Virus genome (UHGV): UHGV-0106768
Source of the DNA: a virus
Length of the DNA stretch: 44,108 nt
Strand: one strand, 5' to 3'
Position numbers and translations under genes: made by a program. Below, one piece after another: positions 105 to 35,466 of this stretch. A model generated the notes under the pieces. It was not told the DNA's origin. It was given only the letters and a program-made list of their open reading frames with translations, and made no database searches. Each line of letters begins with the position of its first letter. The first letter of the stretch is position 1.

Positions 105-1097
105 ATGACTATATATCTTGAAAGAGGACCGTTTCTCACCATTCCCGATAAGCTGCATCCGGGACAGTACAGAGTGATCCGTAACCCCGACTGGCACGGA
201 GAACTGCCGGAGATCGTGTCCTTCACCGATTTTCTCAAATGGAACTACACACTGGAGTACGGTCAGTATATCCGAAAACTGCACTGCTATCGTCGGCTTC
301 CGCTGCCGTGGGGCGTTCCACAGGATGCCGAGATCGAAACTGTCATCATCGAGGAAGGCAGATATGACCGCATTGATCACGATTCCTTTGATATGTATGT
401 GATATGCGATGTCGTGTTCGAGATGAACGGCTGCCGGCAATGCCAGAAGTATATCGTGCACGGCTTTTACTGCTCTTACGGCGGTTCAGACTTTCTGTGT
501 GATGCGGAGCTGTACGATGGGCAGTTTATCCGGCTGAACAATCCTCTGGATGAGTTTCTGGTTCCCGTTCTCTCAAAGAAAGACTTTGAGAGCATTGCAC
601 AGGATATCCTCAACAGCTACTATTCATATAAGTCGAATTATCCTTGCCGCATCAATACTGCTTCGATTGCAAAGGCTATGGGGCTTGACATCAAGTATGC
701 CCGACTGTCAAAAAACGGAAATGTCAAGTCCAAGCTGATCCTGGACAAGCGGGATACGACCGTCTATGATAAGGAATGCAAAGCTGTCAAAATGCGGATC
801 GACAGTCCTACGATCCTTGTGGACGAGTCATTGGAGGAGGATGAAGCGCAGAACGCCATTATTCATGAGTGCGTTCACGCTTACCTTCACAACCTCTTCT
901 ATGAGCTGCAGAGCTACTATCGGAAAATGGTCGGCAGGAAGATGCCGGAGTTCAATGACTACTTCTATTCCAAGACGCAGCGTAGCTGCCTGAAATGGAT
1001 GGAAACACAGGCAAATGCCATCCCACGCTTTATTCAGATGCCGGAGGAGCAGGCATCCGATGTCATCCTGAACTTCTTCGAGCGACTCCCCGGATAG
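105..1097 (+). CDS. HExxH zinc-metallopeptidase-like protein (ImmA/IrrE-like, tentative)
   Basis: 330-aa ORF with AGGAGG RBS 7 nt upstream of ATG 105; HExxH motif (IIHECVHAYLH) near C-terminus; ends at in-frame TAG 1095-1097 followed by open same-frame sequence. Confidence 0.55.
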   Translation: MTIYLERGPFLTIPDKLHPGQYRVIRNPDWHGELPEIVSFTDFLKWNYTLEYGQYIRKLHCYRRLPLPWGVPQDAEIETVIIEEGRYDRIDHDSFDMYVICDVVFEMNGCRQCQKYIVHGFYCSYGGSDFLCDAELYDGQFIRLNNPLDEFLVPVLSKKDFESIAQDILNSYYSYKSNYPCRINTASIAKAMGLDIKYARLSKNGNVKSKLILDKRDTTVYDKECKAVKMRIDSPTILVDESLEEDEAQNAIIHECVHAYLHNLFYELQSYYRKMVGRKMPEFNDYFYSKTQRSCLKWMETQANAIPRFIQMPEEQASDVILNFFERLPG

Positions 1098-2130: not shown

Positions 2131-2674
2131 GAAACAGTTTAGAAATAGAATATTTATAAAATATCCATTTAATTTAGATGATGTGAACAAGTGCAGATTA
2201 TATATCAAAGTTGAGATAAGCATAGTGCATAAAAAACAGCCCCCATTTTTTATGTATGTAAAAGAGAATTCGGATATGTTATGATATAGACACAGTCAAG
2301 GACAGGCACCGCCGCCCATGACTGGAAACAACCTCTATATGCCGGATGCATACGGCAGAGGACGGTCATATGAGAGCAGAACTGAACACCACAGGTATAT
2401 CCCGTGTTCGGAATCTGACATCATATGGCTACTCTGTGTCATGCATCCGGCTATTTTTCTGCCGCGGCATTCGGAGCATGGCAAATCGATCATTACATTT
2501 GTTAGTCAGGGCGCGCACTGGCGGACAGATGCTCATAACGGAAAACAATGCCTGTGGTCTGTATAGACCGGAACAGGTACCGAAAGATTTTCCGTGTGGA
2601 CATTGTCTGCCTGCGTGCCTTTTCGCAGTAAGAGCATCTGCCGCTGAGTGCGTTCCTTGCAGAAAGGAACGATT

Positions 2675-3397
2675 ATGGAAAACGTGAATGTTCAGAATGC
2701 TGCCGCTATTACCGATCAGACCACACTCGGAGAACTGCTTGCAATGCTTGACCTCGCTGATAAGGCAGGCAAGATGCCGACACCGAGAGAACTGTTTGAG
2801 ACCGCCGGTGAGACGATTGCCGACATGAACGGCTGCACGCTCTTCAGCAACGGGTTCGCTGTCTACCAGAATATCACCGGACGTACTGTTGTCTGGCTGC
2901 CTTACTGTAAGAGCTTCACCTATTACTTCGGCAAGCTCCGTGATTCCGAGAAAGACACGCTGACAGAGACCTATGAGCTGCCGGATGGATTTCTGGAAAC
3001 ACAGCCGTGGGTGATCGCAGTAACACTGATCGGCGACCATCGTGTGGAGGCAAACAGCATGAACCGCACCGGCAGCCGCAAGGATACCACAGATTATGAC
3101 AGCGCCGATAACGGCGATAAAGACGGTGATGCAGAGGAGGCTTTGGCAGATCCGTATCGCAGGGCATTCAACTGGTATGACGGACGCATGGGCGAGAATC
3201 CGCAGGATGCCGTGGAGCGCAGAGAGACACGCGAGGAGATGCTTGCAGACATGACGGACAAGCAGCGTGAAGCCTTTATTATGTACTTCAGGGATGGTAT
3301 GACGCAGGAAGAGATTGCTTCATATATAGGGGTAAGCCGTGATTCCATAAATGACAGGCTTGAAGGTGCATTGAAAAAAGCAAAAAAATATTTTTGA
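2675..3397 (+). CDS. sigma-70 region-4-like HTH protein (putative phage transcription factor)
   Basis: ATG 2675 with AAAGGA RBS (ORF track starts at in-frame GTG 2648); C-terminus (REAFIMYFRDGMTQEEIASYIGVSRDSINDRLEGALKKA) resembles sigma region 4; no region 2 recognised. Confidence 0.5.
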   Translation: MENVNVQNAAAITDQTTLGELLAMLDLADKAGKMPTPRELFETAGETIADMNGCTLFSNGFAVYQNITGRTVVWLPYCKSFTYYFGKLRDSEKDTLTETYELPDGFLETQPWVIAVTLIGDHRVEANSMNRTGSRKDTTDYDSADNGDKDGDAEEALADPYRRAFNWYDGRMGENPQDAVERRETREEMLADMTDKQREAFIMYFRDGMTQEEIASYIGVSRDSINDRLEGALKKAKKYF

Positions 3398-4390: not shown

Positions 4391-5638
4391 ATGCCTGACG
4401 TTCACGCACTGCTCAGTGCGTCCAGTTCAAAACAGTGGCTACACTGTCCGCCGTCAGTCCGTTTGCAGGAGGGATTTCCGAATGAGAGTTCAGTCTACGC
4501 CGCAGAGGGCACGTTTGCCCACGAGATCTGCGAATACAAGGTACGTAAGTACCTGAAGGAGCGTGTGAAGCGTCCGCAGTCCGAGGAATATGACACCGAG
4601 GAAATCGAGCAGATCACAGATGTGTATGCGGAGTTCGTGATCTCCATCATTGAGCAGATGAAGGAGAACGGCTGTGAGCCGCTTGCTTTTGTTGAGGAGC
4701 GTGTGGACTACAGCCACATTGCCCCTTCCGGCTTTGGCACGGCAGATATGCTCATCATCGGTAAGGACGAGCAGGGACGCGGAATCCTTCATGTATGCGA
4801 TTTCAAGACGGGTGCAGGCGTGTTTGTGGATGCAGACCACAACAGCCAGATGATGCTCTATGCGATCGGAGCTTTAGCCGCCTACGGCTTTTTGTATGAT
4901 TTTGAGATCGTGCGTATGAGCATCATTCAGCCTCGTCTGGATAATATCAGCACATTCGAGTGTAGCAGAGCCGAGCTTGAGGAATGGGGCGAGAGCATCA
5001 AGCCCATTGCGAAACTTGCCTACGAGGGCAAAGGTGAACAGCACCCCGGCGACTGGTGTCGGTTCTGCCGTGCAAAGCCTGTTTGCAAAGCGTGTGCCAA
5101 TGAAGCACTGGCACTCTGCCGTGAGGATTTCCTTGACCTCGATGCCGGAGCATTCGATGATACTGCGGAGGAAAGCGATATGACCGCACCATACGAAGCG
5201 GATATACAGACTGCCGTATTCAAGCAGCCGTGACTGATTCCTATCAGCGAACTTGCGGAGATCCTGCCGACTCTGAACCGCATCAGCTCTTGGATCGAGG
5301 CGGTATTCGCATTCGTATCCTCCGAGGCGATCAATCACGGTGTACCGATTCCCGGCTATAAGGTGGTCGAAGGGCGCAGCAAGCGTGTATTCACAGATAC
5401 AAAAGCTGTGGTCGATACCGCTGTTCAGAACGGGTACACCGACCTTTACAAGCAGACGCTCATCACGCTGACGGAATTTGAAAAGATGATGGGCAAGAAA
5501 AAGTTCAACGAGCTGCTCGGTGAGTATGTCGCCAAGCCACCCGGAAAGCTGGCACTTGTGCCGGAGAGCGATCCGAGAGAACCCGTTGATCTCACAACAC
5601 CCGGTCAGGAATTTGAAGTTCTCTCTGATGATGAGTGA
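4391..5638 (+). CDS. DUF2800-like PD-(D/E)XK nuclease (Cas4/RecB-like), interrupted by in-frame TGA at 5231-5233
   Basis: N-terminal MPDVHALLSASSSKQWLHCPPS and C-terminal Cys cluster CRFCRAKPVCKAC are as expected for DUF2800; same-frame continuation through the stop reads as protein (ISELAEILPTLNRISSWIEAV...GYKVVEGRSKRVF); downstream part has no RBS or ATG. Confidence 0.7.
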
Positions 5639-6327: not shown

Positions 6328-9213
6328 GTGGTGATTTTATTGAGCAGACGTGTACTTTCTATCGACCTTGAGACCTACAGCGATGTTGACCTTCCGAACT
6401 GCGGTGTGTACCGCTATGTTGAGGGGGATTTTCATATCCTGCTGTTCGCATATGCATTCGATGATGAAGAAACAAAGTGTATCGACATGGCCTGCGGTGA
6501 ACAGCTTCCCGCAGAGGTTGTGGATGCCATACACAATGAAAATATCATCAAATCTGCGTGGAATGCGCAGTTTGAGCGCATCTGTCTGTCAAAATATCTC
6601 GGCATCAGGCTTTCTCCGGACTCGTGGCAATGCACGATGGTATGGGCGGCATCGCTGTCCCTGCCGCTGAAGCTGGCAACGGCAGCACAGGCTTTGAAAA
6701 CTGCACAGCAGAAAGACAGTGTCGGTGAACGGCTGATCCGCTACTTTTCGATTCCGTGTAAGCCTACCAAATCTAACGGCGGTCGCACACGCAATCTGCC
6801 GGAACACGCTCCGGAGGACTGGGCGCTGTTCAAAAGCTACTGTATTCAGGATGTGGAAACGGAACGGGATATCCGCCGAAGACTTGAAAAGTTTCCGCTG
6901 ATGCCGCAGGAATGGGATTTTTATCACATGGATCAGCGGATCAATGACCGCGGCATCCTGATCGACAGAGAGCTTGTGCAGCAGGCAATTATCTGTAATA
7001 TGGCAATGTCTGAGGAGATGACCAAACGCGCCTATGCACTGACGGGACTTGAAAATCCCAATTCTGTATCTCAGCTGAAGTCATGGCTGGAAGATCGCGG
7101 CATCGAGGTGGATTCCCTCGGCAAAAAGAATGTCGCTTCTCTGATCACAGACCTTGACAAGCACAGTGCGGACGGTGAAGCTCTGGATATGATGAAGCTG
7201 CGGTTGCAGATGGCAAAGTCCTCTGTGAAAAAGTATCAGGCGGCAGAGAGATACATCTGTCAGGACGGCAGGGCGCACGGACTGTTTCAGTTTTCCGGAG
7301 CTCAGCGAACACAGCGCTGGTGTCTTACCGGCGATCATGAAATACTGACAGATAAAGGCTGGCTCAGGCTTGATAATTGGCAGGGCGGTAAGATTGCTTG
7401 TTGGAATCCTAATCAGGAAATGGTCTCGTTCCAGAAAGCGAACGTATTGTGCTTTGAATATGACGGTCCTATCTACCGCTATGAGGACAAACGGATCGAT
7501 CAGATCAGCACGCCGGATCACAAAATGCGTGTAAAGAAACGGTATAACGGCGAGTGGACGGATGACACTGTTGGCAATATGGAAAAGTATCGTCCTTCTA
7601 TTCCGTTTACCGGACGCAGACAAACGATGCCCGGCTTGGAGCACGCAGAACTGAGGGTACTGGTGATGACGCAGGCTGACGGCAGCTATAAAGAAGATGG
7701 AATGCTCTGCTTCCATTTCAAGAAGAAAAGGAAAATAGAACGGTGCAAACATCTGCTCAGACAGGCGGGCATTTATTTCACAGTGAATGAATGCAGGACA
7801 GATGGAACAACGCAGATCAAGATTCCTTCCCGTGAGCAGCCGATGTATCTAAGAATGTTTCATAACAAGACATTTGGAATGTGGCTTCTCGATGAAAGCC
7901 CGGATGTTTTCTTTGATGAGCTTCGGTATTGGGACGGATCGCAAAGCGCCAAAAACAGTATCCAATATACCACAACGAACAAAGTGAATGCCGATATTGT
8001 TCAGGCTTTTGCTCATACAAGTGGTCGCTGTGCAAAAATGAAACCGGTCATCCGGGATAAAGAACACCCGAATTGGAGCGATGCATACTATCTCGATATA
8101 TGGCTCACTCCGAAAAACTGTCATGAAATCAGAGTGAAGCCGACTATCTCGCAATTCAGCGGCAAAATATACTGTGCTGAAACCCCAACCGGATACTTCC
8201 TTGTAAGACGTAATGGTAAAGTGTGGGTAACAGGAAACAGCGGGCGCGGCATTCAATTACAGAACCTGCCGCAGAACCACATCTCTACCCTCGATGAAGC
8301 AAGAGAACTTGTCAAAATGGGCTGCTTTGACATGATCGAAGCACTGTACGGCAATACGCCGGATATCCTGTCACAGCTTATCCGCACGATGCTCATTCCG
8401 AAGGACGGCTGTGAATTTATCGTGGCAGACTTCTCCGCCATTGAAGCGAGAGTACTTGCGTGGCTTGCCGGAGAACAGTGGCGGCTCGATGCCTTCAAGC
8501 GTGGCGAGGATATTTACTGTGCATCCGCATCGCAAATGTTCGGTGTTCCGGTCGTGAAGCACGGCATCAACGGTGAACTGCGGCAGAAAGGCAAGGTCGC
8601 AGAATTGGCCTGCGGTTACGGCGGCGGTGCCGGTGCGCTGATCTCAATGGGCGCACTGGATATGGGACTGAAAGAGGACGAACTTCCCGACATCATTTCA
8701 AGCTGGCGCGACGCAAACCCGGAGATCGTGAAATTCTGGTATGCTGTGGAAAAAGCCGCGATTGAAACAGTCAAGGATCACAATGACAGATCGGTCGGCC
8801 GGATCGGATTTCAGTTTTCAGCAAATACACTGTGGATCGTTCTTCCGTCCGGACGCAGGCTTGCCTACATCAAACCGAGATTACAGCCGAACCGCTTCGG
8901 GCGTATGGCACTGACATTTGAGGGGCTTGGTGCAAACAACAAGTGGGTGCGCGGCGAAACCTATTCCGGCAAGCTGACAGAGAACATCACACAGGCAACT
9001 GCCCGTGATCTCCTTGCAGAAGCAATGCGCCGTATAGAACTTGCAGGGCTTGGAATCGTCGGGCATGTGCATGATGAGGTCATTCTCGAAGTGCCGAAAG
9101 GACAATACACGGTCGATGATGTATGCAGCATCATGAATCAGAATCCGAAATGGGCGGAGGACTTACCGTTGTCAAGTGCAGGATATACGGGTGCATGGTA
9201 CTACAAAGATTAA
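6328..9213 (+). CDS. family A DNA polymerase with 3'-5' exonuclease domain, intein-containing
   Basis: Exo I motif SIDLETYS; pol motif A IVADFSAIEAR, motif B RQKGKVAELACGYGGG, motif C VHDEVI; NLQNLP-like motif; start ambiguous (GTG 6328 or TTG 6340). Confidence 0.85.
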   Translation: MVILLSRRVLSIDLETYSDVDLPNCGVYRYVEGDFHILLFAYAFDDEETKCIDMACGEQLPAEVVDAIHNENIIKSAWNAQFERICLSKYLGIRLSPDSWQCTMVWAASLSLPLKLATAAQALKTAQQKDSVGERLIRYFSIPCKPTKSNGGRTRNLPEHAPEDWALFKSYCIQDVETERDIRRRLEKFPLMPQEWDFYHMDQRINDRGILIDRELVQQAIICNMAMSEEMTKRAYALTGLENPNSVSQLKSWLEDRGIEVDSLGKKNVASLITDLDKHSADGEALDMMKLRLQMAKSSVKKYQAAERYICQDGRAHGLFQFSGAQRTQRWCLTGDHEILTDKGWLRLDNWQGGKIACWNPNQEMVSFQKANVLCFEYDGPIYRYEDKRIDQISTPDHKMRVKKRYNGEWTDDTVGNMEKYRPSIPFTGRRQTMPGLEHAELRVLVMTQADGSYKEDGMLCFHFKKKRKIERCKHLLRQAGIYFTVNECRTDGTTQIKIPSREQPMYLRMFHNKTFGMWLLDESPDVFFDELRYWDGSQSAKNSIQYTTTNKVNADIVQAFAHTSGRCAKMKPVIRDKEHPNWSDAYYLDIWLTPKNCHEIRVKPTISQFSGKIYCAETPTGYFLVRRNGKVWVTGNSGRGIQLQNLPQNHISTLDEARELVKMGCFDMIEALYGNTPDILSQLIRTMLIPKDGCEFIVADFSAIEARVLAWLAGEQWRLDAFKRGEDIYCASASQMFGVPVVKHGINGELRQKGKVAELACGYGGGAGALISMGALDMGLKEDELPDIISSWRDANPEIVKFWYAVEKAAIETVKDHNDRSVGRIGFQFSANTLWIVLPSGRRLAYIKPRLQPNRFGRMALTFEGLGANNKWVRGETYSGKLTENITQATARDLLAEAMRRIELAGLGIVGHVHDEVILEVPKGQYTVDDVCSIMNQNPKWAEDLPLSSAGYTGAWYYKD
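7321..8238 (+). mobile_element. intein (306 aa) with LAGLIDADG homing-endonuclease domain inside the PolA gene
   Basis: Begins CLTGDHEILTDKGW (block A), TPDH block B, two LAGLIDADG-like motifs (VMTQADGSY, LRYWDGS), ends ...VWVTGN followed by Ser; removing it joins RTQRW to SGRGIQLQNLP, restoring the conserved TGR-S/NLQN region. Confidence 0.7.
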
Positions 9214-13388: not shown

Positions 13389-15808
13389 ATTTCGTAAATA
13401 TCCCGGACGCACTGAAGCAGTCGGCATCCTTCTGTGTCTGGAAGCTGGAAAAGAGATCCGGACGCCCCACAAAAGTGCCGTACAATCCGAGAACCGGCAA
13501 CATGGCAAAAACCAACGAGCCGGACACCTTCACCGACTTCAAGACCGCTATGAAAGCGTATGCGATTGGCGGCTGGAACGGCATCGGCTACAGAGTTTCC
13601 GAGGGAATCGGTGCAATCGACATCGACCACTGTATCCGGGAGGACGGCAGCCTGAATGATGTGGCAGCATCCATTCTCGGTATCTTCAGCACTGCCTACT
13701 TTGAACGCTCTCCATCCGGCACCGGACTGCGCGGCTTCTTCAAACTCAGCCCTGAGTTTGCCTACGATAAGACTGTGTACTACATCAACAACCGCAAACA
13801 CGGTCTGGAGGTCTATCTGCCCGGAACGACCAACCGCTTTGTAACTGTTACGGGAGATATGTTCCGTCCCGGTACCGTTGAGCGTGATGATGATGCACTC
13901 CGCAATCTGCTTGACACCTTCATGAAGCGCAGCACCCGTGTATCAAATAAGACGATCGAGCCTGCATCCTATCTTGATGACGAGGGTGTCATCGCACACG
14001 CATTCGCCTCTGCTTCTGGTGATAAATTCAAAGCACTCTACGAGGGACACTGGGAGGAAGGCTATGATTCGCAGTCTGATGCAGACATGGCGTTCGTGTC
14101 CATGCTGTGCTTCTGGTGCGGCAATGTGGAGGAGCAGATCGACCGTATCTTCCGAACTTCCGGTCTGATGCGTGATAAGTGGGATCGTATGACCGGTGAC
14201 AGGACCTACGGTCAGATCACGATCCGCAATGCCATCGCATCGACATCCGAGATCTATACACCTATTGCGGACTCCTCCGCAGAGGATGATTTTGAAGATA
14301 TTGAGGGCGAGACAGATACAGAGCAGCTGATGTTTGAGCCGGATTTCACCCACATCACCCTGACGCTGGAACAGATGCAGCCGCACACAAATCCTCGCTA
14401 TCAGCGTGACGAGATCGGTATTGGCTATGCATTTGCGGATTACTATAAGCCAATCGCTCATTTCGACCGTGAGCGCGGTATCTGGTATGTCTTTGACGGG
14501 AAGGTGTGGCAGCCGGACGAAAATGCTCTCGCTGTGGCGGAGATTGCAAAGCGTCTGGCAGACAGGCTGTATACCTTCGCCCTTCAGATCAAGGATGAGG
14601 ATACTCGAAACAGGTATATCAAGCGTGTACAGAAGCTCCAACTCCGCAAAAACCGCCGCACCATGATCGAAGATGCGAAATCCGTGTATCCAGTGCCGCA
14701 CGCTATCTTTGACCGCAATACCGATCTGTTCAACAGTCAGAACGGCACGCTGAACCTCACCACAGGTGAATTCCGTCCGCACGATCCGGCAGACTTTCTC
14801 ACCATGATGTCCGGTGTCACCTATGATCCGAATGCCACCTGTCCGAGATGGGAGCAGTTCATTTCCGAAGTTATGTGTAACGATGCTGACCTCGCATTAT
14901 ACTTGCAAAAAGCCCTCGGATATGCGCTTACCGGCGACACATCGCTCGAATGCCTGTTCATCCTCTACGGTGCGACCTCCCGAAACGGAAAAGGCACCAC
15001 AATGGAGACATTTCTGAAGATCATGGGTGATTACGGCAAAACCTCCAATCCGGAGATGCTGTCTACAAAATTCGGCAACACCAATGCGTCCGGACCGTCT
15101 GAGGAGATTGCTCGCCTTGCGGGTGTGCGTTTCGTTAATATCTCCGAGCCGGAGAAGAAGATCACCTTCAATGCAGCACTGGTAAAGCGTATGACGGGTA
15201 ACGATACACTGAATGCTCGTTTTCTGCATGAGAACAGCTTCGATTTCAAGCCGAATTTCAAGATCTTCATCAATACGAATTACAAACCGTCCGTTTCTGA
15301 TATGACACTGTTTTACTCCAACCGTCTGAAGCTCATTCCGTTCAAACGCCATTTTGAGGAGCATGAGCAGGACAAAGGTCTGAAAGCATTTTTCAGTACG
15401 GATGTCTGCCTCTCTGCCATCTTTAACTGGTGCTATGAAGGATATAAGCGGTTTCGTTCCGAAGGTCTGGAGGATCCGGCTGCTGTTTCTCAGGCAACCA
15501 AGGAGTATCAGGAGGAGTCTGACCGCATCGGTCAGTTTGTGGATGCATGGCTCGAAGAAGGCGAAGCATTTGAAGTTCGTACCTCTGCGGCATATAAGCT
15601 GTACGGTGAATGGTGCGATAAGTATGGCTACCGCAAGGAGAACAGCACCAACTTCAATAATGCGATTCAGCGTTTCTTCCCCATCGTGCGTAAGCGTCCG
15701 AACGATACAAAGGGTGCGCAGAAAACAACAATGCTTGTGGGGTGCCGTTTCCTGGATCATGAAAACGGCGAAGCTGACGAACCGGATGAGTTTGCTGCCT
15801 TGGAGTAA
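13379..15808 (+). CDS. DNA primase/helicase (prim-pol-like N-terminal domain plus P4/D5-type helicase)
   Basis: 809 aa; Walker A GATSRNGKGT; N-terminal bifunctional primase-polymerase-like region; AAGGAGA RBS. Confidence 0.8.
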   Translation: MPVNFVNIPDALKQSASFCVWKLEKRSGRPTKVPYNPRTGNMAKTNEPDTFTDFKTAMKAYAIGGWNGIGYRVSEGIGAIDIDHCIREDGSLNDVAASILGIFSTAYFERSPSGTGLRGFFKLSPEFAYDKTVYYINNRKHGLEVYLPGTTNRFVTVTGDMFRPGTVERDDDALRNLLDTFMKRSTRVSNKTIEPASYLDDEGVIAHAFASASGDKFKALYEGHWEEGYDSQSDADMAFVSMLCFWCGNVEEQIDRIFRTSGLMRDKWDRMTGDRTYGQITIRNAIASTSEIYTPIADSSAEDDFEDIEGETDTEQLMFEPDFTHITLTLEQMQPHTNPRYQRDEIGIGYAFADYYKPIAHFDRERGIWYVFDGKVWQPDENALAVAEIAKRLADRLYTFALQIKDEDTRNRYIKRVQKLQLRKNRRTMIEDAKSVYPVPHAIFDRNTDLFNSQNGTLNLTTGEFRPHDPADFLTMMSGVTYDPNATCPRWEQFISEVMCNDADLALYLQKALGYALTGDTSLECLFILYGATSRNGKGTTMETFLKIMGDYGKTSNPEMLSTKFGNTNASGPSEEIARLAGVRFVNISEPEKKITFNAALVKRMTGNDTLNARFLHENSFDFKPNFKIFINTNYKPSVSDMTLFYSNRLKLIPFKRHFEEHEQDKGLKAFFSTDVCLSAIFNWCYEGYKRFRSEGLEDPAAVSQATKEYQEESDRIGQFVDAWLEEGEAFEVRTSAAYKLYGEWCDKYGYRKENSTNFNNAIQRFFPIVRKRPNDTKGAQKTTMLVGCRFLDHENGEADEPDEFAALE

Positions 15809-15936: not shown

Positions 15937-16114
15937 AAATAAATAAAAACAATAGAAAAGATAAGAAGAATAGAGGATTTTCACTGATTTGAACCATTAC
16001 CCATTTTGCACTGTTTTGAACCTTGCCCGATGCTGTCACTGACAAAGAGTGTGTAAGCGACAAAGCGTGGCAAGGTCAAAATCCAACGATCAATCATGCA
16101 GGAGGAACAAGAAT

Positions 16115-17209
16115 ATGAGAATCATCACTTCAGAACAGGTATCCGCAGGACACCCCGACAAGATCTGTGACCAGATCGCAGATGCTATCGTGACCGACTG
16201 CCTGCAGCATGACCACAACAGCCGTGTCGCCATCGAGTGCCTTTTCAAGAACCGCTTCCTTGTGATCGCCGGTGAACTGACCAGCACCCATGAGCCCGAC
16301 TACAAGGCACTGGTGCAGAGCGTGTTTGACCGCATCAACAACGGCGGAGCAGAGAGTACCGATGCAGGTTTTGATTACAAGCTGGATTTCACAGCCGATG
16401 ATCTGGACATTGCGATTCTGGTCGATCACCAGAGTAGCGACATTGCCCTCGGTGTGAATACCGGCGGTGCAGGAGATCAGGGTATGATGTACGGCTATGC
16501 GACCAACGAAACGCCGGAGATGCTCCCGATCCCCTTCGTGCTGGCTACCAGATTTCTGGAACTGCTGAAAGCCTACCCCTGCCGTATGCTGAAAGCCGAC
16601 GCAAAGGCACAGGTCAGCTATGACTATGACAGCGGTCGCATTACCACCTTCCTCTGCTCGGTGCAGCATACACACGATGTGGATGTTGAGGACTTCAAGC
16701 CCATCATCGAAAAGCTGATGGTGAGAACGGCAACCGAATACGGGCTGAATACAGACTTTGCAAAGCTCGTCAACCCGACCGGCAGATTTGTCATAGGCAG
16801 TTCCTTTGCGGACTGCGGCGTTACCGGACGCAAGCTCGCCTGCGATACCTATGGCGGTATCGGGCATATCGGCGGCGGTGCAATGTCCGGCAAAGATCCG
16901 TCTAAGGTTGACCGCAGCGGCGCATATGCAGCAAGAAAAATCGCAAGGGATATCGTCAGTGCCGGATATGCGGATATGGCAGAGGTGCAGATCGCATATG
17001 CCATCGGCGTGGCAGAACCCGTATCCGTGTATGTGGAAACCTTCGGCACGGAGCATCAGGATACGGAGTTCATCAGCCAGTATGTCCGTGAGAACTACGA
17101 CCTGACACCGAGAGGTATCATTGAAGGACTGCATTTGCTGGATGTGGACTACAACGCTGTTTCCGCATACGGACACTTCGGAAAACAGAACCTTCCGTGG
17201 GAACTATAA
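16115..17209 (+). CDS. metK: S-adenosylmethionine synthetase (MetK)
   Basis: SEQVSAGHPDKICDQIADAI N-terminus, GAGDQGMMYGYA and GGGAMSGKDPSKVDRSGAYAARKIA motifs; CAGGAGGA RBS. Confidence 0.85.
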   Translation: MRIITSEQVSAGHPDKICDQIADAIVTDCLQHDHNSRVAIECLFKNRFLVIAGELTSTHEPDYKALVQSVFDRINNGGAESTDAGFDYKLDFTADDLDIAILVDHQSSDIALGVNTGGAGDQGMMYGYATNETPEMLPIPFVLATRFLELLKAYPCRMLKADAKAQVSYDYDSGRITTFLCSVQHTHDVDVEDFKPIIEKLMVRTATEYGLNTDFAKLVNPTGRFVIGSSFADCGVTGRKLACDTYGGIGHIGGGAMSGKDPSKVDRSGAYAARKIARDIVSAGYADMAEVQIAYAIGVAEPVSVYVETFGTEHQDTEFISQYVRENYDLTPRGIIEGLHLLDVDYNAVSAYGHFGKQNLPWEL

Positions 17210-17236
17210 TAAATTTTTTGAAATTTTTTTTTGATT

Positions 17237-17280
17237 GGATACCCACAAAATGCCCTCTCCCACGACAGTATATGAGGGGC
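17237..17280. repeat. conserved ~45-bp element, copy 2
   Basis: GGATACCCACAAAATGCCCTCTCCCACGACAGTATATGAGGGGC; matches 3398..3442 with stem-preserving differences. Confidence 0.6.
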
Positions 17281-17360
17281 GTTGCTCAGACCGAACAACA
17301 CATCATTTGCGGGGCTGACCGTCCCTCACCAAATATCAACACAGGAAGGAGGCAGAGACA

Positions 17361-17720
17361 ATGCCGAGCAGACCAAAGACACCATGCCGTCACCCCGGCT
17401 GTGCGGCGCTCGTACCCTACGGTGCGAAGTACTGCGGCAAGCACCGTTCTCTCCATCCGGAGGATACACGCTCCGCAGGCAGTCGAGGCTATGGCACCGC
17501 ATGGAACAAGGCCCGCAAGCGTTACCTTGAGACGCATCCGCTGTGTGTGGAGTGCATGAAGCAAGGACGCTACGTCAAGGCGACCGATGTGGATCACATC
17601 ATGCCGCACCGAGGAGACAATGTTCTCTTCTGGGATCAGAGCAACTGGCAGAGCCTCTGCCACCGACACCACAGCATCAAAACCAGAAACGAGGATCACA
17701 CCCCTGAGTACAAGTACTGA
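17361..17720 (+). CDS. HNH endonuclease
   Basis: CxxC...CxxC plus VDHIMPH...N.Q.LCH..H..K motif; AGGAAGGAGG RBS. Confidence 0.8.
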   Translation: MPSRPKTPCRHPGCAALVPYGAKYCGKHRSLHPEDTRSAGSRGYGTAWNKARKRYLETHPLCVECMKQGRYVKATDVDHIMPHRGDNVLFWDQSNWQSLCHRHHSIKTRNEDHTPEYKY

Positions 17721-18177
17721 CTGCGGCTCACCAACTTACTCTGCGATTCAGACTCGGCTCAGGGGTGTACCTATGGGCGGGGCTGGGGGCTGGGGCTGCC
17801 CGCCGGGGCGGGTTCATTTCTCTGTGTGAAAGCGAACACAAGACCGTCGGCCCCTCTCGTGTGAAAAAACGCGAATTTGCAAGGGCCCCGGTCATTTGGG
17901 ACACTGACAGAGATATATTAGCTGTAAATGAAATACTGTGCAGAAAACAGAAAACGCAGATTTTTCGTGCTTTTCCATATGCTGCCGTAGGAAACTGCGG
18001 CCGCAGGATACATACAGAGTTTCGTTACAAAATGCACTGTAAAACGGCGAATTTACGTCAAAAAGCGATAGAATTAGCACATTTTTAGCGCCAAACCGCA
18101 TTTTACAGTTTTATTCTTGGCGGAGCCCGTGTGGATACCGAAAACCGCATAAAATCAGAAGTTTCGAGGTGAATCAG

Positions 18178-18471
18178 ATGACAGATTCTCAAAAATATCA
18201 AGTACGAATTATGCGGATGCAGGGCATTGGATATAAGGCAATAGCAAGGTCGCTGGGCTTGAAAACCAATCAGGTGCAGCTCTTTTGCAAGGCTCACGGT
18301 CTTGCAGGAGACAATCATCTGGTCGATGTCAACTATCAAATCTGGTGTCAGCAAAACAACCGCTGTCCGGTCTGCGGTGCAAAAATCGATCAGCCGAGAA
18401 TCGGACGCAGGAAGAGATTCTGCTCCGGTCGGTGCAGAACGAAATACTGCCGTGAGCAGAAAGGAGAATGA
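18178..18471 (+). CDS. small HTH / zinc-ribbon protein
   Basis: ATG 18178 with GAGGTGA RBS (ORF track starts at GTG 18169); CPVCG...CSGRC. Confidence 0.5.
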   Translation: MTDSQKYQVRIMRMQGIGYKAIARSLGLKTNQVQLFCKAHGLAGDNHLVDVNYQIWCQQNNRCPVCGAKIDQPRIGRRKRFCSGRCRTKYCREQKGE

Positions 18472-18473
18472 GA

Positions 18474-18647
18474 ATGCTTGTAACAGTTTTATGCCTTACC
18501 TACATGATGATCATTATCCTGATCCATGCGATCTGGATCAGCTCAATCATCAAGCATGACGGCAAATGCCACTTTGGTAACTGCAGCCGCTGTCCGTATG
18601 ACGGCTATTGCCCGATGCAGGAAGGAGATACACATGGAGACAAGTAA
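18474..18647 (+). CDS. small hydrophobic (membrane) protein with Cys-rich tail
   Basis: 57-aa ORF below the ORF-track cutoff; AGGAGA RBS 6 nt upstream; LVTVLCLTYMMIIILIHAIWISSII hydrophobic stretch. Confidence 0.35.
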   Translation: MLVTVLCLTYMMIIILIHAIWISSIIKHDGKCHFGNCSRCPYDGYCPMQEGDTHGDK

Positions 18648-18915
18648 TGGCAGCAGAGTAGCAGGTGCGGTAATCGCGCCGAAGGCAAATGATGAAATCA
18701 ACCATCCCTCACACTATACCGCCGGCAGCATTGAGGTCATCGACTTCCTCGAAGCATGGGACTTCCCTTTCCATCTGGCGAACGCGATCAAATATATCTG
18801 CCGCGCAGGGCGGAAAGATAAGAACGCTCTCGTCACCGATCTGAAGAAGGCAGTGTGGTATATCAACCGCTACATCGATTATGTTGAGAAGGGTGGCAAG
18901 GAGGGCAAGGCATGA
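18634..18915 (+). CDS. DUF3310-like phage protein
   Basis: ATG 18634 with GGAAGGAG RBS; NHPSHY...GSIEVIDF...NAIKYI.RAG.KD pattern. Confidence 0.5.
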   Translation: METSNGSRVAGAVIAPKANDEINHPSHYTAGSIEVIDFLEAWDFPFHLANAIKYICRAGRKDKNALVTDLKKAVWYINRYIDYVEKGGKEGKA

Positions 18916-19397
18916 CGCTGACTGAGAACTTCATTCAGAATGCCATCCATCTCGATGCGGGTGCGGAGGTCATGTACGGCAGCGATCAGATGTACGACAC
19001 CTACCCTTGCCGTTTTCCGGCTGTGGAGTTTCAACTTATGGCAACGGATGCTCTTGTTGAGGTTGCAGACCGCATCCGCATGGAGAAGGGCTACCTTCCG
19101 ATGCATCCGAGAGACGGCAAGACAGACGATGTGGACTGCGATGGTTTCTATGATTTTTATGTCGGGATTTCAAAGCTCCCCGGCGACCATCAGCAGTGCC
19201 AGCTTGACAGCAGCATCAGCTTTATGGTTGTCAATTCGGATTCGGATGACAACGAGGATATGTACAATATCGACTTGACAGAAGCAGAACGGGAATATGT
19301 GTATGAGATACTGAACCGACAGTGCCGGAGGTATCACGGCAAGGACTGCGCCGAACTTCTGGCAGAGTCTGAAAAGGAGCTGATGGATACAGCATGA
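18912..19397 (+). CDS. hypothetical protein
   Basis: 161-aa ORF overlapping the upstream stop (ATGA); RBS GGAGGG. Confidence 0.5.
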   Translation: MTLTENFIQNAIHLDAGAEVMYGSDQMYDTYPCRFPAVEFQLMATDALVEVADRIRMEKGYLPMHPRDGKTDDVDCDGFYDFYVGISKLPGDHQQCQLDSSISFMVVNSDSDDNEDMYNIDLTEAEREYVYEILNRQCRRYHGKDCAELLAESEKELMDTA

Positions 19398-21541
19398 GAA
19401 TTATCAAGCGAAACGGCGCAGAGGTGCCGTATGACTGTGAAAAGATCAGAGCCGCAATTACTGCGGCAAACGATGAGATGGATTCCGGCGACAGGATCAC
19501 AGATACAGTAATCGGCTTTATTGCTGGTAATGTAGAAAAGCGATGTGAGGCACTTGCAAGGCCTGTCCATGTCGAAGAAGTCCAGGACATGGTTCTTGAT
19601 GAACTGGACAGGGCCGAAGCGTACAAACTTGCACGGCACTACAGCGAGTACCGCCTGCGTCATGAACAGCAGCGCCGGATGAACACAACGGACGGCAAGA
19701 TTCTCAGTCTCCTTGAGAGGAACAACGAGGAGGCAAAACAGGAGAACGCCAACAAGAACCCGATCATCAACAGCACGCTCCGTGACTATATGGCGGGGGA
19801 GGTCAGCCGAGACATCTGCCGCCGATTCCTGTTTCCCGAAGATGTAATCGCTGCCCACGATGACGGCATCATTCATGTACACGATCTGGACTACATCGCA
19901 GAGCCGATGCATAACTGCTGTCTGGTGAATCTGGAGGATATGCTTCAGAACGGCACAGTGGTATCCGGTACTATAATTGAGAAGCCGCACAGCTTTTCGA
20001 CTGCCTGCAATATCGCAACGCAGATCATTGCACAGGTCGCCTCGAATCAGTACGGTGGACAGACCGTCAGCCTTGCACATCTTGCACCTTTCGTGGATGT
20101 GAGCAGAAAAAAGATCCGCACCGAGGTGTTCGAGGATGTGAACTGCGACTGCGGTGCAAAGCTGTCTGAAAAAGAACTGGACTACATCGTAGAAAAGCGT
20201 GTGCGACGGGAGGTCAAGCGTGGCGTGCAGACGATACAGTATCAGATCAACACGCTGCTCACTACCAACGGACAGACGCCGTTCGTCACAGTGTTTATGT
20301 ATCTTGATGAAGTGCCGGAGGGACAGACCCGTGATGACCTTGCGCTCATCATCGAGGAAACACTGCTTCAGCGTATCGAGGGTGTGAAAAACGAAAAGGG
20401 CATCTGGATCACACCGGCATTTCCGAAGCTGATCTATGTTCTTGATGAGGATAACATTCAGCCCGGTTCCAAGTATTACTATCTCACCGAGCTTGCCGCC
20501 AAGTGTACTGCAAAGCGCATGGTTCCCGACTATATTTCCGCAAAGGTGATGAAACGTCTGAAGGGTGATGTGTATGCCTGCATGGGCTGCCGATCTTTCC
20601 TGACACCTTCGGATGACCACAAATACTACGGGCGATTCAATCAGGGAGTCATCACGATCAACCTTGTGGATGTTGCGTGTAGCGCAGGCGGAGACGAAGA
20701 TAAATGCTGGCAGCTTCTTGATGAACGCTGCGAACTGTGCCGCAAAGCGCTTGTGTGTCGGCATGACCGCCTGAAAGGGACACCGTCCGATGTTGCACCA
20801 ATCCTCTGGCAGTATGGCGCACTTGCGAGACTGAAGAACGGCGAGGTCATTGACGATCTGCTGTATAACAACTACAGCACGATCTCGCTCGGCTATGCCG
20901 GCATCGCGGAAATGACCTATCACATGACAGGCCGTTCGCATACAGAGCCAGAAGGAAAAGCGTTTGCACTGAAGGTCATGCGATTCCTGAACGATAAGTG
21001 CAGCAAATGGAGAGCTGAAAGCAATATCTCGTTCTCGCTGTACGGCACGCCGATGGAGAGCGTCACCTACAAATTTGCACAATGTTTGCAGCGCAGACAC
21101 GGCATCATTCCTCATGTGACCGACAAGAGCTATATCACCAACAGCTATCATGTCCATGTGACTGAGCCGATCGATGCCTTCAGCAAGCTAATTTTTGAGG
21201 CAGAGTTTCAGGAGCTTTCTCCGGGCGGTGCGATCAGTTATGTGGAAGTACCGAATCTGCAAAACAATATCCCTGCAGTGCTGGTGCTCATGAGACACAT
21301 CTACGAAACGATTCTGTACGCCGAACTGAATACCAAGTCCGATTACTGTCAGGCTTGCGGCTATGACGGCGAGATCGGGATCGTGGAAGAAGACGGCAAG
21401 CTGATCTGGGAATGTCCGAACTGCGGCAACCGCGATCAGCGAACACTGAATGTCTGCCGCCGCACCTGCGGTTACCTCGGAACGCAGTTCTGGAATCAGG
21501 GACGCACTGCTGAGATCAAGGATCGGGTGATGCACCTGTGA
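19394..21541 (+). CDS. nrdD: anaerobic ribonucleoside-triphosphate reductase (class III, NrdD)
   Basis: 715 aa; C-terminal zinc ribbon (CQACG...CPNCG) and glycyl-radical motif RTCGYLG. Confidence 0.85.
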   Translation: MRIIKRNGAEVPYDCEKIRAAITAANDEMDSGDRITDTVIGFIAGNVEKRCEALARPVHVEEVQDMVLDELDRAEAYKLARHYSEYRLRHEQQRRMNTTDGKILSLLERNNEEAKQENANKNPIINSTLRDYMAGEVSRDICRRFLFPEDVIAAHDDGIIHVHDLDYIAEPMHNCCLVNLEDMLQNGTVVSGTIIEKPHSFSTACNIATQIIAQVASNQYGGQTVSLAHLAPFVDVSRKKIRTEVFEDVNCDCGAKLSEKELDYIVEKRVRREVKRGVQTIQYQINTLLTTNGQTPFVTVFMYLDEVPEGQTRDDLALIIEETLLQRIEGVKNEKGIWITPAFPKLIYVLDEDNIQPGSKYYYLTELAAKCTAKRMVPDYISAKVMKRLKGDVYACMGCRSFLTPSDDHKYYGRFNQGVITINLVDVACSAGGDEDKCWQLLDERCELCRKALVCRHDRLKGTPSDVAPILWQYGALARLKNGEVIDDLLYNNYSTISLGYAGIAEMTYHMTGRSHTEPEGKAFALKVMRFLNDKCSKWRAESNISFSLYGTPMESVTYKFAQCLQRRHGIIPHVTDKSYITNSYHVHVTEPIDAFSKLIFEAEFQELSPGGAISYVEVPNLQNNIPAVLVLMRHIYETILYAELNTKSDYCQACGYDGEIGIVEEDGKLIWECPNCGNRDQRTLNVCRRTCGYLGTQFWNQGRTAEIKDRVMHL

Positions 21542-22005
21542 ATTACTGCGGACTGAATAAAAACGATATCGCCAACGGCGAAGGTGTCCGTGTATCGCTG
21601 TTTGTATCCGGATGCCGGAATCAATGCAAGGGCTGTCACAACCCAGAGGCATGGGATTTCAGCTATGGACAGCCCTTCACAAAAGAAACTGAAGATGAGA
21701 TCATCGAAGCCCTGCGTCCTTCTTGGATACAGGGCATTTCCATACTCGGTGGTGAACCCTGTGAGCCGGAAAATGAAAAAACACTCCTGCCTCTGCTGAA
21801 AAAGATCTGGTGGGAGATGCCAGAAAAAGATATCTGGCTGTACAGCGGATACACTTACGAGCAGTTGCAAGGCAGAGCCATACTTCGGTATGTGGATGTT
21901 CTGGTTGACGGGCCGTTCCTAATCGACCAGAAGGATATCTCCCTTGCATTTCGAGGCAGTCGGAATCAACGGATCCTCCGATTAAGAAATGGGGTGCGGG
22001 TATGA
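21538..22005 (+). CDS. nrdG: anaerobic RNR activating protein (radical SAM, NrdG)
   Basis: CRNQCKGC radical-SAM cysteine motif near N-terminus; immediately downstream of and overlapping NrdD; GTG start. Confidence 0.75.
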   Translation: MNYCGLNKNDIANGEGVRVSLFVSGCRNQCKGCHNPEAWDFSYGQPFTKETEDEIIEALRPSWIQGISILGGEPCEPENEKTLLPLLKKIWWEMPEKDIWLYSGYTYEQLQGRAILRYVDVLVDGPFLIDQKDISLAFRGSRNQRILRLRNGVRV

Positions 22006-22320: not shown

Positions 22321-23592
22321 ATGAAAACAGCAGAACTTCGCATGATCCCTGTCTCGGAACTGAAGCCTGCGGAATACAACCCGCGTAAAAAGCTGAAGCC
22401 CGGCGACAAGGAATACGAGAAGATCAAAAACAGCATCGAGGAATTCGGTTTTGCCGACCCTTTGGTAGTCAACGCCGATATGACCATCATCGGCGGACAT
22501 CAGAGACTGACCGTAGCGATGGCGCTCGGCTACACGGAAGTTCCGTGTGCGGTGGTAGACATCGACAAGGTTCGTGAGAAGGCACTGAACATCGCACTGA
22601 ACAAGATCACGGGTGCGTGGGACGAGAACCTTCTTGCTGAACTTCTGGAGGATATTCAGAACAGTGATTTCGATCTTGGCAAGACCGGCTTTGACCCGCC
22701 GGAGATCGAGCAGCTTTTCAATCAGGTACACGATAAGCAGGTCAAAGAGGACAGCTTCGATGTGGAGGAGGAGCTTCAGAAACCGACCTTCTCTCAGCCG
22801 GGAGATACCTGGATCCTCGGCAGGCACAGAGTCATCTGCGGCGACAGCACAGTTGCGGAGACATACACAAAGCTGATGGACGGACAGAAAGCAAATCTCG
22901 TCCTGACGGACCCGCCTTACAATGTGGATGTTGAGGAGACCGCCGGCAAGATCATGAACGATAACATGAGCGACAGCGATTTCTACAACTTCCTGCTTGC
23001 CGCCTATAAGTGTATGTATGACAGTCTTGCCGATGACGGCAGCATCTATGTATGGCACGCCGACACCGAGGGGCTGAATTTCAGAAAGGCATTCAAGGAC
23101 GCAGGATTCCAGCTTTCCGGCTGCTGTATCTGGAAGAAGAATTCGCTGGTGCTCGGGCGCAGTCCTTACCAGTGGATCCATGAACCGTGCCTGTTCGGCT
23201 GGAAGCAGAAGGGCAAGCATCAGTGGTACGCCGACCGCAAGCAGACGACCGTCTGGGAATACGACAAGCCGAAAAGCAGTCCCGATCATCCGACCACAAA
23301 GCCCATCCCGCTGATGGCGTACCCGATCAAGAACAGCACCATGACAAACGGCATCGTCCTCGATCCATTTCTCGGCTCTGGCTCTACGCTGATCGCCTGC
23401 TGTGAGACAGACCGTGTCTGCCGGGGCATCGAGCTTGACCCGAAGTTCGTGGATGTCATCGTGAAACGTTACCTCGCATGGTGTCAGGAGAAGCAGACCG
23501 CAGAGGTCGCATATGTTCTCCGTGACGGCCAGAAGCTGTCATACGAGGAAGCGATTGCAGTAATGCCGCAGGACGGTGATGCTGTTGAGTGA
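22321..23592 (+). CDS. ParB-like N-terminal domain fused to N6-adenine/N4-cytosine DNA methyltransferase
   Basis: ParB-N-like GGHQRL; MTase motif IV DPPY before motif I LDPFLGSGST (beta-class order); GGGAGGGA RBS. Confidence 0.8.
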   Translation: MKTAELRMIPVSELKPAEYNPRKKLKPGDKEYEKIKNSIEEFGFADPLVVNADMTIIGGHQRLTVAMALGYTEVPCAVVDIDKVREKALNIALNKITGAWDENLLAELLEDIQNSDFDLGKTGFDPPEIEQLFNQVHDKQVKEDSFDVEEELQKPTFSQPGDTWILGRHRVICGDSTVAETYTKLMDGQKANLVLTDPPYNVDVEETAGKIMNDNMSDSDFYNFLLAAYKCMYDSLADDGSIYVWHADTEGLNFRKAFKDAGFQLSGCCIWKKNSLVLGRSPYQWIHEPCLFGWKQKGKHQWYADRKQTTVWEYDKPKSSPDHPTTKPIPLMAYPIKNSTMTNGIVLDPFLGSGSTLIACCETDRVCRGIELDPKFVDVIVKRYLAWCQEKQTAEVAYVLRDGQKLSYEEAIAVMPQDGDAVE

Positions 23593-24352
23593 AGTAAAAT
23601 GCGTTCTCATACACGACAATTTCCAGAATTACAAGGGCTACAGCATTCCGAGGGCACAGCTCGTCATTGCGGATATCCCGTATAACATTGGCGGAGATTT
23701 TTACGCAAGTCGCCCGGACTGGTATGTGAATGGCGACAATCAGAACGGCGAAAGCAGCAAAGCGCACAAGGCGGCATTCCACACGGACTACTCTTTCAAC
23801 ATCGCTGAGTATTTCGCATTCTGCAACCGACTGCTCAAAAAGGAACCGTCCAAAGGTGAAAAGGATGCTCCCTGCATGATCATGTTCTGCGCCTTCCAGC
23901 AGATCCCGGAGGTCATCCGGCAGGCGGAGAAATAAGGCTTCAAGCACTACCAGTTTTTATGCTTTATGAAGAACTACAGTCCGCAGGTGCTGAAAGCAAA
24001 CATGAGGATCGTTGGTGCTACCGAATATGCGCTGGTGCTGTATCGGGGCAAGCTGCCGAAGTTCCGCAATACCGATGCGGACGGCAAGCGGCACATGATC
24101 TTCGACCATTTCGACTGGGTGCGGGACGGCAAAGATATCCCGAAGATACATCCAAGCCAGAAGCCGGTGAATCTGCTGAAGCGCCTGATTGGGATATTTA
24201 CCGATGAGGGCGATGTGGTCATCGACCCCTGTGCGGGTTCAGGAAGTACACTGAGAGCCGCAAGAGAAATGGGACGCAACAGCTACGGCTTTGAGGTCAG
24301 CAGGGATTTCTATACCAAAGCCCGTGAGCAGATGCTCGGAGGTGCGGAATGA
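23579..24352 (+). CDS. N6/N4 DNA methyltransferase interrupted by in-frame TAA at 23933-23935
   Basis: Motif IV DIPY upstream of the stop; HPSQKP and motif I IDPCAGSGST downstream; same frame, continuous protein-like read-through (AEK * GFKHYQFLCFMKN). Confidence 0.65.
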
Positions 24353-34992: not shown

Positions 34993-35466
34993 ATGGCTCA
35001 GAGAGGCAGAAAACCAACGCCTACGGCGATCAAAGAGCTGGAAGGCAATCCGGGCAAGCGTCCGCTGAATGATGCAGAGCCGAAGCCGGAACGCAAGGCA
35101 CCGCCCTGTCCGAAGTGGCTGGAGCCCGAAGCAAAAAAGGAATGGCGCAGGCTGTCAAAGCAACTGGAGCAGATTGGTGTGCTGACCGAGGTCGATCAGG
35201 CGGCATTCGCATCCTACTGTCAGGCATACGCACGATGGAAAGAAGCCGAGGAATTCATGACCCAGCACGGCACGATCGTAAAAACAAAATCAGGTTACTG
35301 GCAGCAGGTTCCGCAGGTATCCATTGCGCAAACTTATCTGAAGATCATGAACAAGATCGCAGAGCAGTTTGGCCTGACCCCGGCGGCAAGAAGCCGTATC
35401 ACTGCCGGCGCAGATATGAAAAACGCTGCCGTTGACGATATGGATGAACTTCTCGGAGGTGGCTGA
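34993..35466 (+). CDS. terminase small subunit (P27 family)
   Basis: GRKPTPTAIKELEGNPGKRPLN...AFASYCQAYARWKEAEEF...FGLTPAARSRI pattern; GGAAGGAG RBS; in-frame ATG also at 34987. Confidence 0.75.
   Translation: MAQRGRKPTPTAIKELEGNPGKRPLNDAEPKPERKAPPCPKWLEPEAKKEWRRLSKQLEQIGVLTEVDQAAFASYCQAYARWKEAEEFMTQHGTIVKTKSGYWQQVPQVSIAQTYLKIMNKIAEQFGLTPAARSRITAGADMKNAAVDDMDELLGGG

Follow-up and report, generated by a model that had tools for sequence, protein, structure and literature searches.

A premature TGA, most likely a recent point mutation, interrupts the DUF2800 nuclease gene of a temperate Oscillospiraceae phage

The window analyzed here, a stretch of viral DNA of 44,108 nucleotides, carries a gene for a DUF2800 / RecB-like PD-(D/E)XK nuclease whose reading frame is interrupted by a single TGA. 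We consider it very likely that this stop arose through a recent GGA-to-TGA point mutation at Gly281 of a normally 415-residue protein of a temperate phage. The gene lies in the replication module of a phage of Ruminococcus-type Oscillospiraceae, and the interrupted copy represents an unremarkable nonsense allele within a phage gene family that is already known. We call the mutation recent because nothing further has changed downstream of the stop and because the allele is restricted to one near-clonal lineage; both are tests of low power. For annotation, the ORFs 4391-5233 and 5363-5638 should be merged into one disrupted DUF2800 nuclease gene, rather than listed as two genes or as a candidate for recoding.

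A single DUF2800 nuclease gene is divided by one in-frame stop

The window reads AAG CAG CCG TGA CTG ATT CCT around the stop. The TGA is in register with the ATG at 4391, and 134 further codons remain open beyond it before the frame ends at a second TGA. The parts of the gene are as follows:

4391-5638, + strand: whole DUF2800 / PD-(D/E)XK nuclease gene, from the joined Pfam match
4391..5230, + strand: N-terminal 280 codons of the nuclease gene, matching DUF2800 positions 1-249 and PDDEXK_1
5231..5233, + strand: in-frame TGA, very probably a mutated GGA glycine codon (G>T at 5231), from the sequence and its relatives
5234..5638, + strand: stranded C-terminal 134 codons with the natural TGA at 5636-5638, matching DUF2800 positions 256-368
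4745-4747, 4799-4801 and 4805-4807, + strand: D119, D137 and K139, the PD-(D/E)XK residues
upstream nuclease part, + strand: Q153 and Y157, the QxxxY motif
4445-4447, 5057-5059, 5066-5068 and 5084-5086, + strand: C19, C223, C226 and C232, the cysteine cluster

When compared with the Pfam family DUF2800 (PF10926), the upstream 280 residues match positions 1-249 of the 368-position model (E 1.8e-93) and positions 256-368 are covered by the 134 residues after the stop (E 8.8e-35). Joined, the halves span positions 1-368 of 368 (E 5e-131) with 437.7 bits, well above the gathering cut-off of 21. Since the two halves match consecutive parts of one profile, the downstream stretch is no chance open frame and, judged from these alignments, 4391-5638 is one gene broken by one stop. 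This bears out the initial annotation, which had placed an in-frame TGA inside one DUF2800 nuclease gene. The full-length frame is not intact in this copy; with a TGA at codon 281, it is a nonsense allele of the family.

The nuclease core lies entirely upstream of the stop. Residues 8-233 cover positions 2-247 of the 247-position PDDEXK_1 model, with a score of 41-43 bits (cut-off 22), and D119, D137, K139, Q153, Y157 and the four cysteines are invariant in 21 homologues, down to 41% identity. The upstream part thus has both the catalytic residues and the cysteines of a Cas4/AddB-like nuclease. The pattern C19...C223-x2-C226-x5-C232 is typical of Cas4/AddB-type nucleases, and by analogy with those enzymes it may hold an Fe-S cluster. 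In the alignment, which reaches down to 41% identity, a clade-specific acidic insert (approximately residues 248-280) separates the nuclease core from the C-terminal domain, and the stop falls at the end of this insert. Pro280 is invariant and the VFKQPG motif is conserved across the clade; most genome copies have VFKQPG, and the most distant copies lack the insert that holds it. Structure prediction from the alignment of 21 close homologues gave a mean pLDDT of 34 and a pTM of 0.24, too low for the model to be used. A PDB sequence search, run with the single protein and with a 21-sequence profile, returned no match even at E <= 10, and phage GenBank records yielded three distant partial DNA matches (66-72% identity) annotated as 'exonuclease'.

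The position of the stop at a domain boundary would suit a natural gene fission, in which the nuclease core and the C-terminal domain are translated separately as two proteins. A library search with the C-terminal 134 residues also found many proteins of approximately 90-150 aa that consist of this domain alone; however, these short matches are indistinguishable from contig-end fragments or from halves of other pseudogenes. An in-frame scan found no canonical start codon between 5234 and 5362. The first in-frame ATG, GTG or TTG after the stop is a GTG at 5363, 44 codons downstream, and inspection by eye of the sequence before it (CCCGGCTATAAG) revealed no AGGAGG-like or other Shine-Dalgarno-like sequence. 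The claim that the downstream part has neither a start codon nor a ribosome-binding site thus holds as far as canonical starts are concerned. Moreover, initiation at GTG 5363 would cost a third of the C-terminal domain, and the protein is a single chain in every close relative and in 35 of the 39 genome copies. We therefore regard fission as highly improbable and favor a point mutation in a formerly continuous frame.

Relatives encode glycine at codon 281

To establish the residue expected at the stop, as the initial annotation had proposed, homologues were collected from a 5.8-billion-protein collection. The 120 closest proteins are 94-97% identical and 414-416 aa long, and the residue at the stop position is Gly in 119 of them and Asp in one. 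At the DNA level, the codon is GGA in 12 of 12 intact relatives compared, nine of which also have identical flanking codons (AAGCAGCCG GGA CTGATTCCT). In a genome scan that used one genome per species, the gene turned up in Ruminococcus flavefaciens (among others in the cultured strain 007c) and in numerous MAGs of Oscillospiraceae. Of the 39 genome copies translated, 35 encode the complete protein in a single ORF of 369-432 aa, two are cut off by the end of their contig, and two carry damage at other positions, a stop at Glu172 (locus L198) and a frameshift (locus L229). A stop at codon 281 was found in none of the 120 close proteins, none of the 12 DNA relatives and none of the 39 genome copies, and among the relatives examined at this position none ends naturally there with a separate gene downstream.

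Exact-pattern scans with N at the first base of the codon recovered only GGA in metagenome and viral collections, which do not contain the TGA contigs; the same scans around the stop returned nothing in a genome collection that likewise lacks those contigs. The G>T change at 5231 is unique to the window in a comparison with at least five relatives that all agree. Hence the TGA is one base away from the GGA of its relatives and confined to one lineage, the pattern of a pseudogene, and the proposal of a recent nonsense mutation is strongly supported. The stretch downstream of the stop is identical to that of the top-ranked homologue (P0001) except for the last seven residues, and no window-specific substitution was found downstream of 5231 within the gene.

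The beginning of the same gene has a different character. Positions 4396-4570 hold 32 substitutions specific to the window, almost all of which affect the third base of a codon, and the rest of the gene holds four. This patch looks like a recombination import from an unsampled lineage.

The stop is present in contigs from several assemblies

The exact 280-aa product was found on five contigs from JGI, ENA and Logan assemblies. These are the window's own contig (ENA ERZ1303852 NODE_435, 45,599 bp, its name giving cov 7.4), a Logan contig from run ERR1190833 that is 100% identical to the window, an 85-kb JGI contig (3300029559) and two further similar contigs. The JGI contig equals the window over the approximately 46.6 kb compared, except for 19 differences within a 105-bp patch (2803-2908). 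Judged from these comparisons, the TGA is confined to one near-clonal lineage.

In the case of a sequencing or assembly error, position 5231 would in truth be a G and the gene would be intact. The coverage of the window's contig is low, G>T belongs to a known class of oxidative-damage artefacts, and all five carrier contigs may go back to a single sample or person, the JGI contig possibly sharing its source material with ERR1190833. Against this, the same T appears in the NODE_-named ENA, JGI and Logan assemblies, which makes a mistake of one assembler or consensus step unlikely because several pipelines agree, and a consensus mistake would require the agreement of most reads. A second internal stop, TAG 1095 (described below), is certainly real, so stops of this kind do circulate in this phage. 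An error, which the initial annotation had listed among its explanations, is therefore very unlikely, and we continue with the reading of a genuine mutation.

The only stretch in which the carrier contigs differ is 2803-3268, which lies in a sigma-70 region-4-like gene (2648-3397). The 19 differences in 2803-2908 are seen in the JGI contig and in one ENA contig, the Logan contig of ERR1190833 begins exactly at 2909, and another assembly of ERR1190833 has 32 differences from the window in 2986-3268. The stretch looks like a hotspot of recombination or strain variation. Variants of this small region probably coexist within one run or sample, since the Logan contig breaks at the variable patch.

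Recoding of the TGA is not supported

A TGA within the frame of a gut-phage gene can bring recoding to mind, and programmed read-through had been offered as one explanation of this stop. Under this reading, the TGA would be decoded as Trp, Gly or Sec, or would be subject to regulated read-through, so that a short and a long nuclease are made. Several features of the site could be taken in its favor. As in some read-through genes of viruses, the stop stands between two domains. The base after the TGA is C, a weak termination context in E. coli, and the residue expected at this position, Gly, matches the meaning of UGA in genetic code 25. To our knowledge, that code is known solely from Gracilibacteria and relatives, and the Clostridia, to which the hosts (Ruminococcus/Oscillospiraceae) belong, use the standard bacterial code. 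Because GGA is one step from TGA, the ancestral glycine is a coincidence; the C at the +4 position, too, is merely inherited unchanged from the GGA CTG of relatives, none of which among those examined has the stop. UGA is also the leakiest of the stops (PMC11126739).

The codon usage of the element argues against reassignment. TGA is the commonest stop of long + strand ORFs (32 of 49 mapped, a count that includes the internal stop itself), and several of these ORFs show ATGA start/stop overlaps. This usage shows that TGA works as a true stop in the phage element. We also compared ORFs of at least 100 aa from approximately 170 related loci with the window, and found three stops that interrupt real + strand gene frames; the one at 5231-5233 is the only in-frame TGA in a gene frame. 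Neither many in-frame TGA codons nor a lack of TGA as terminator, the signs of reassignment as in codes 4 or 25, was seen in the window.

Searches for the machinery of recoding were negative as well. ARAGORN predicted no tRNA gene in the window or in the flanking same-lineage loci L001, L174 and L245, so that approximately 62 kb of the lineage are free of tRNA genes, and no Rfam family scored above its gathering score in the whole window. The RNA after the stop is not predicted to be unusually structured (minimum free energy -17.9 kcal/mol versus a shuffle mean of -19.45, z +0.46). Neither a SECIS hairpin after the UGA nor Cys/Sec at the homologous position was found; the homologues have Gly or Asp, and Gly rather than Cys argues against selenocysteine. 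Programmed read-through or recoding is thus not supported, and we consider it extremely unlikely. That every one of these tests fails here is a useful negative result for a site that invites such an interpretation. We return below to the sense-to-nonsense mutation as the preferred reading.

Two further genes carry in-frame stops

The other two stops that interrupt + strand gene frames are the following:

1095..1097, + strand: TAG (from GAG, Glu), splitting the 642-codon gene 105-2033 into 330 + 299 aa
23933..23935, + strand: TAA (from TAC, Tyr; C>A at 23935), splitting the methyltransferase gene 23576-24352 into 119 + 128 aa

At the site of TAG 1095, the relatives L004-L007 have GAG in an intact gene of 642-643 aa. 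The product has weak matches to Peptidase_M78 (IrrE-like) and HTH models, all of which are below the Pfam score cut-offs. The TAG allele occurs on 15 contigs, with nine different sample/run accessions among the ten listed, and both halves of the gene remain open in all contigs listed. Its occurrence across many accessions makes it certainly real, an established polymorphism rather than a private lesion. In the methyltransferase gene, a single N6_N4_Mtase match spans the TAA (E 3.7e-27), and 25 relatives have one ORF with a Tyr codon (22) or a His codon (3) at this position. This allele is on five contigs, and those listed are the same JGI and ENA records that carry the TGA allele.

All three stops (TAG 1095, TGA 5231 and TAA 23933) are G:C>T:A changes. 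This class accounts for 11 of the 45 isolated changes specific to the window and for 71 of 553 changes in relatives (Fisher p = 0.04). A mutator or oxidative-damage signature was considered and is too weak to claim; G:C>T:A is only mildly enriched and is also the commonest route to stops here, accounting for 38% of all possible nonsense-making changes. Among relatives, a first count of 21 nonsense singletons fell to nine after a codon check, and approximately 2-4 of these are convincing internal stops. The window lineage may be somewhat enriched in nonsense lesions, although the numbers are small. One of the convincing internal stops is that of the relative L004, where a DUF932 gene (13880-14929) has a TAG at codon 73, so that the gene calls give 72 + 266 aa rather than one protein of 349 aa.

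The initial annotation had associated a nonsense mutation with prophage decay, a suggestion that can be followed in part. The two further in-frame stops agree with it; general decay does not follow, since the ratio of synonymous to non-synonymous lineage-specific changes (102 to 61) is like that of the relatives (1019 to 805), which indicates that the element is still under constraint. The nuclease allele thus resembles the nonsense pseudogenes of prophages in that it differs from intact relatives by a single base and is restricted to one lineage, and in that other genes of the element are hit and other copies of the gene are broken elsewhere. It is unlike those of decayed prophages in the resemblance of the synonymous to non-synonymous ratio to that of relatives, and in that the packaging, head and tape-measure genes are intact. 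The result is a phage lineage with three separate nonsense lesions in a genome that otherwise seems constrained.

Predicted product and relation to known DUF2800 nucleases

On the preferred reading of a GGA-to-TGA mutation, translation would stop at codon 281 and yield a 280-residue product. This product would retain the whole nuclease core, the four-cysteine cluster and the acidic linker, and would lack the conserved C-terminal domain of 134 residues. Separate re-expression of this domain is not expected, since there is no canonical start for 44 codons and no Shine-Dalgarno-like sequence was seen. In E. coli, a premature TGA is the leakiest stop and is decoded mostly as Trp (PMC11126739); for this reason a trace of full-length G281W protein is conceivable, made by at most a small fraction of ribosomes that read through the UGA, probably with Trp. 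The lesion appears to be tolerated, which would be explained by persistence of the phage in the prophage state or by a nuclease, or a C-terminal domain of it, that the phage can do without.

A conserved module combines DUF2800 nucleases with a gp2.5-like SSB and PolA (PMC8093625). The gene described here belongs to the same family (PF10926) as those of the phage duf2800 - gp2.5-like SSB - polA systems (PMC8093625; PMC3424549), and the order of the module is also the same, with DUF2800 followed by an Enc34-type ssDNA-binding protein (PF10991) and then by a family A DNA polymerase. It shares with the DUF2800 RecB-like nucleases the motifs D...D-x-K, Q-x3-Y and C...C-x2-C-x5-C. In contrast to the known members, the window's copy is cut at codon 281 and only its nuclease core is predicted to be made.

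Premature truncation of a phage DUF2800 nuclease has a precedent in coliphage Bas14, whose DUF2800 nuclease, Bas14_0045 (B14T), is the trigger of a type IX retron (bioRxiv 10.64898/2026.07.14.737667). Escaper phages carried missense mutations and premature truncations in this nuclease and were viable (bioRxiv 10.64898/2026.07.14.737667). Hence the gene can be dispensable for plaque formation, and tolerance of the TGA is unsurprising; in both cases a premature stop in a phage DUF2800 nuclease is compatible with phage growth. The two cases differ in that the Bas14 truncations were selected in the laboratory, in E. coli under a defined defence, and in that the window's truncation leaves the catalytic domain intact, the activity of which was required for the retron to be triggered.

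This precedent raises the question of whether the truncation was selected, in that a shorter or down-dosed nuclease, possibly with full-length protein at the level of read-through, might evade a host defence that senses DUF2800 nucleases or might lower toxicity to the lysogen. The escapers of the type IX retron, the location of the stop exactly at the domain junction with the nuclease core intact, and the breakage of other copies of the DUF2800 gene would all fit such an account. However, triggering of the type IX retron needed the catalytic residues of the nuclease (bioRxiv 10.64898/2026.07.14.737667), and the truncation described here spares the catalytic domain. In addition, the allele is found in one near-clonal lineage alone, with no sign of spread or of recurrence at the site, and the two nonsense lesions in unrelated genes suggest unselected damage. 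We consider an adaptive truncation very unlikely. If it were adaptive, the allele would parallel in nature the truncation escapers of retron type IX obtained in the laboratory, and the three G:C>T:A hits would reflect an oxidative or mutator episode in the host lineage. Natural truncated DUF2800 alleles are perhaps worth examining in the context of retron defence, even where, as here, an unselected point mutation is the favored explanation.

Gene content of the phage

The early region encodes the sigma-like factor, the nuclease, SSB, PolA, a SNF2 helicase, a primase, SAM synthetase, NrdD/NrdG and several methyltransferases. Within it, an anaerobic ribonucleotide reductase (NrdD, 715 aa), a radical-SAM activase and SAM synthetase map to 19394-22005 and 16049-17209; these are followed by DNA methyltransferases, namely a ParB-N6_N4 fusion, the split N6_N4 enzyme and a 763-aa C5 enzyme. 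Genes for the small and large terminase, the portal, a ClpP protease and an HK97-type capsid protein come next.

Two of these genes contain apparent insertions. The PolA gene (6328-9213) has a 307-codon insert at 7321-8241 that is absent from relatives, so that PolA is 961 aa here and 650-665 aa in relatives. The insert begins with Cys (CLTGDHEILT...), ends ...VWVTGN and is followed by Ser; from these features it resembles an intein, the middle of which may be homing-endonuclease-like. The large terminase gene (35466-38132, 888 aa) has a LAGLIDADG_3 match at residues 303-370, upstream of the ATPase (442-580) and nuclease (589-872) model matches, which hints that this phage has a second insertion of the intein or homing-endonuclease kind.

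Immediately past the window's end is the tape-measure gene, for which the JGI contig has an intact 1359-codon ORF. An apparent loss of this gene from the JGI contig was rejected, as it reflects a difference in gene calling. Similarity to relatives ends after the tape-measure gene. Downstream of its ORF, at 16585-20642 of locus L245 on the JGI contig, are a minus-strand 552-aa gene, a dockerin-domain gene, a Dit-like gene and an IS110-family transposase gene; the tail region may have been rearranged here, or an IS may have been inserted.
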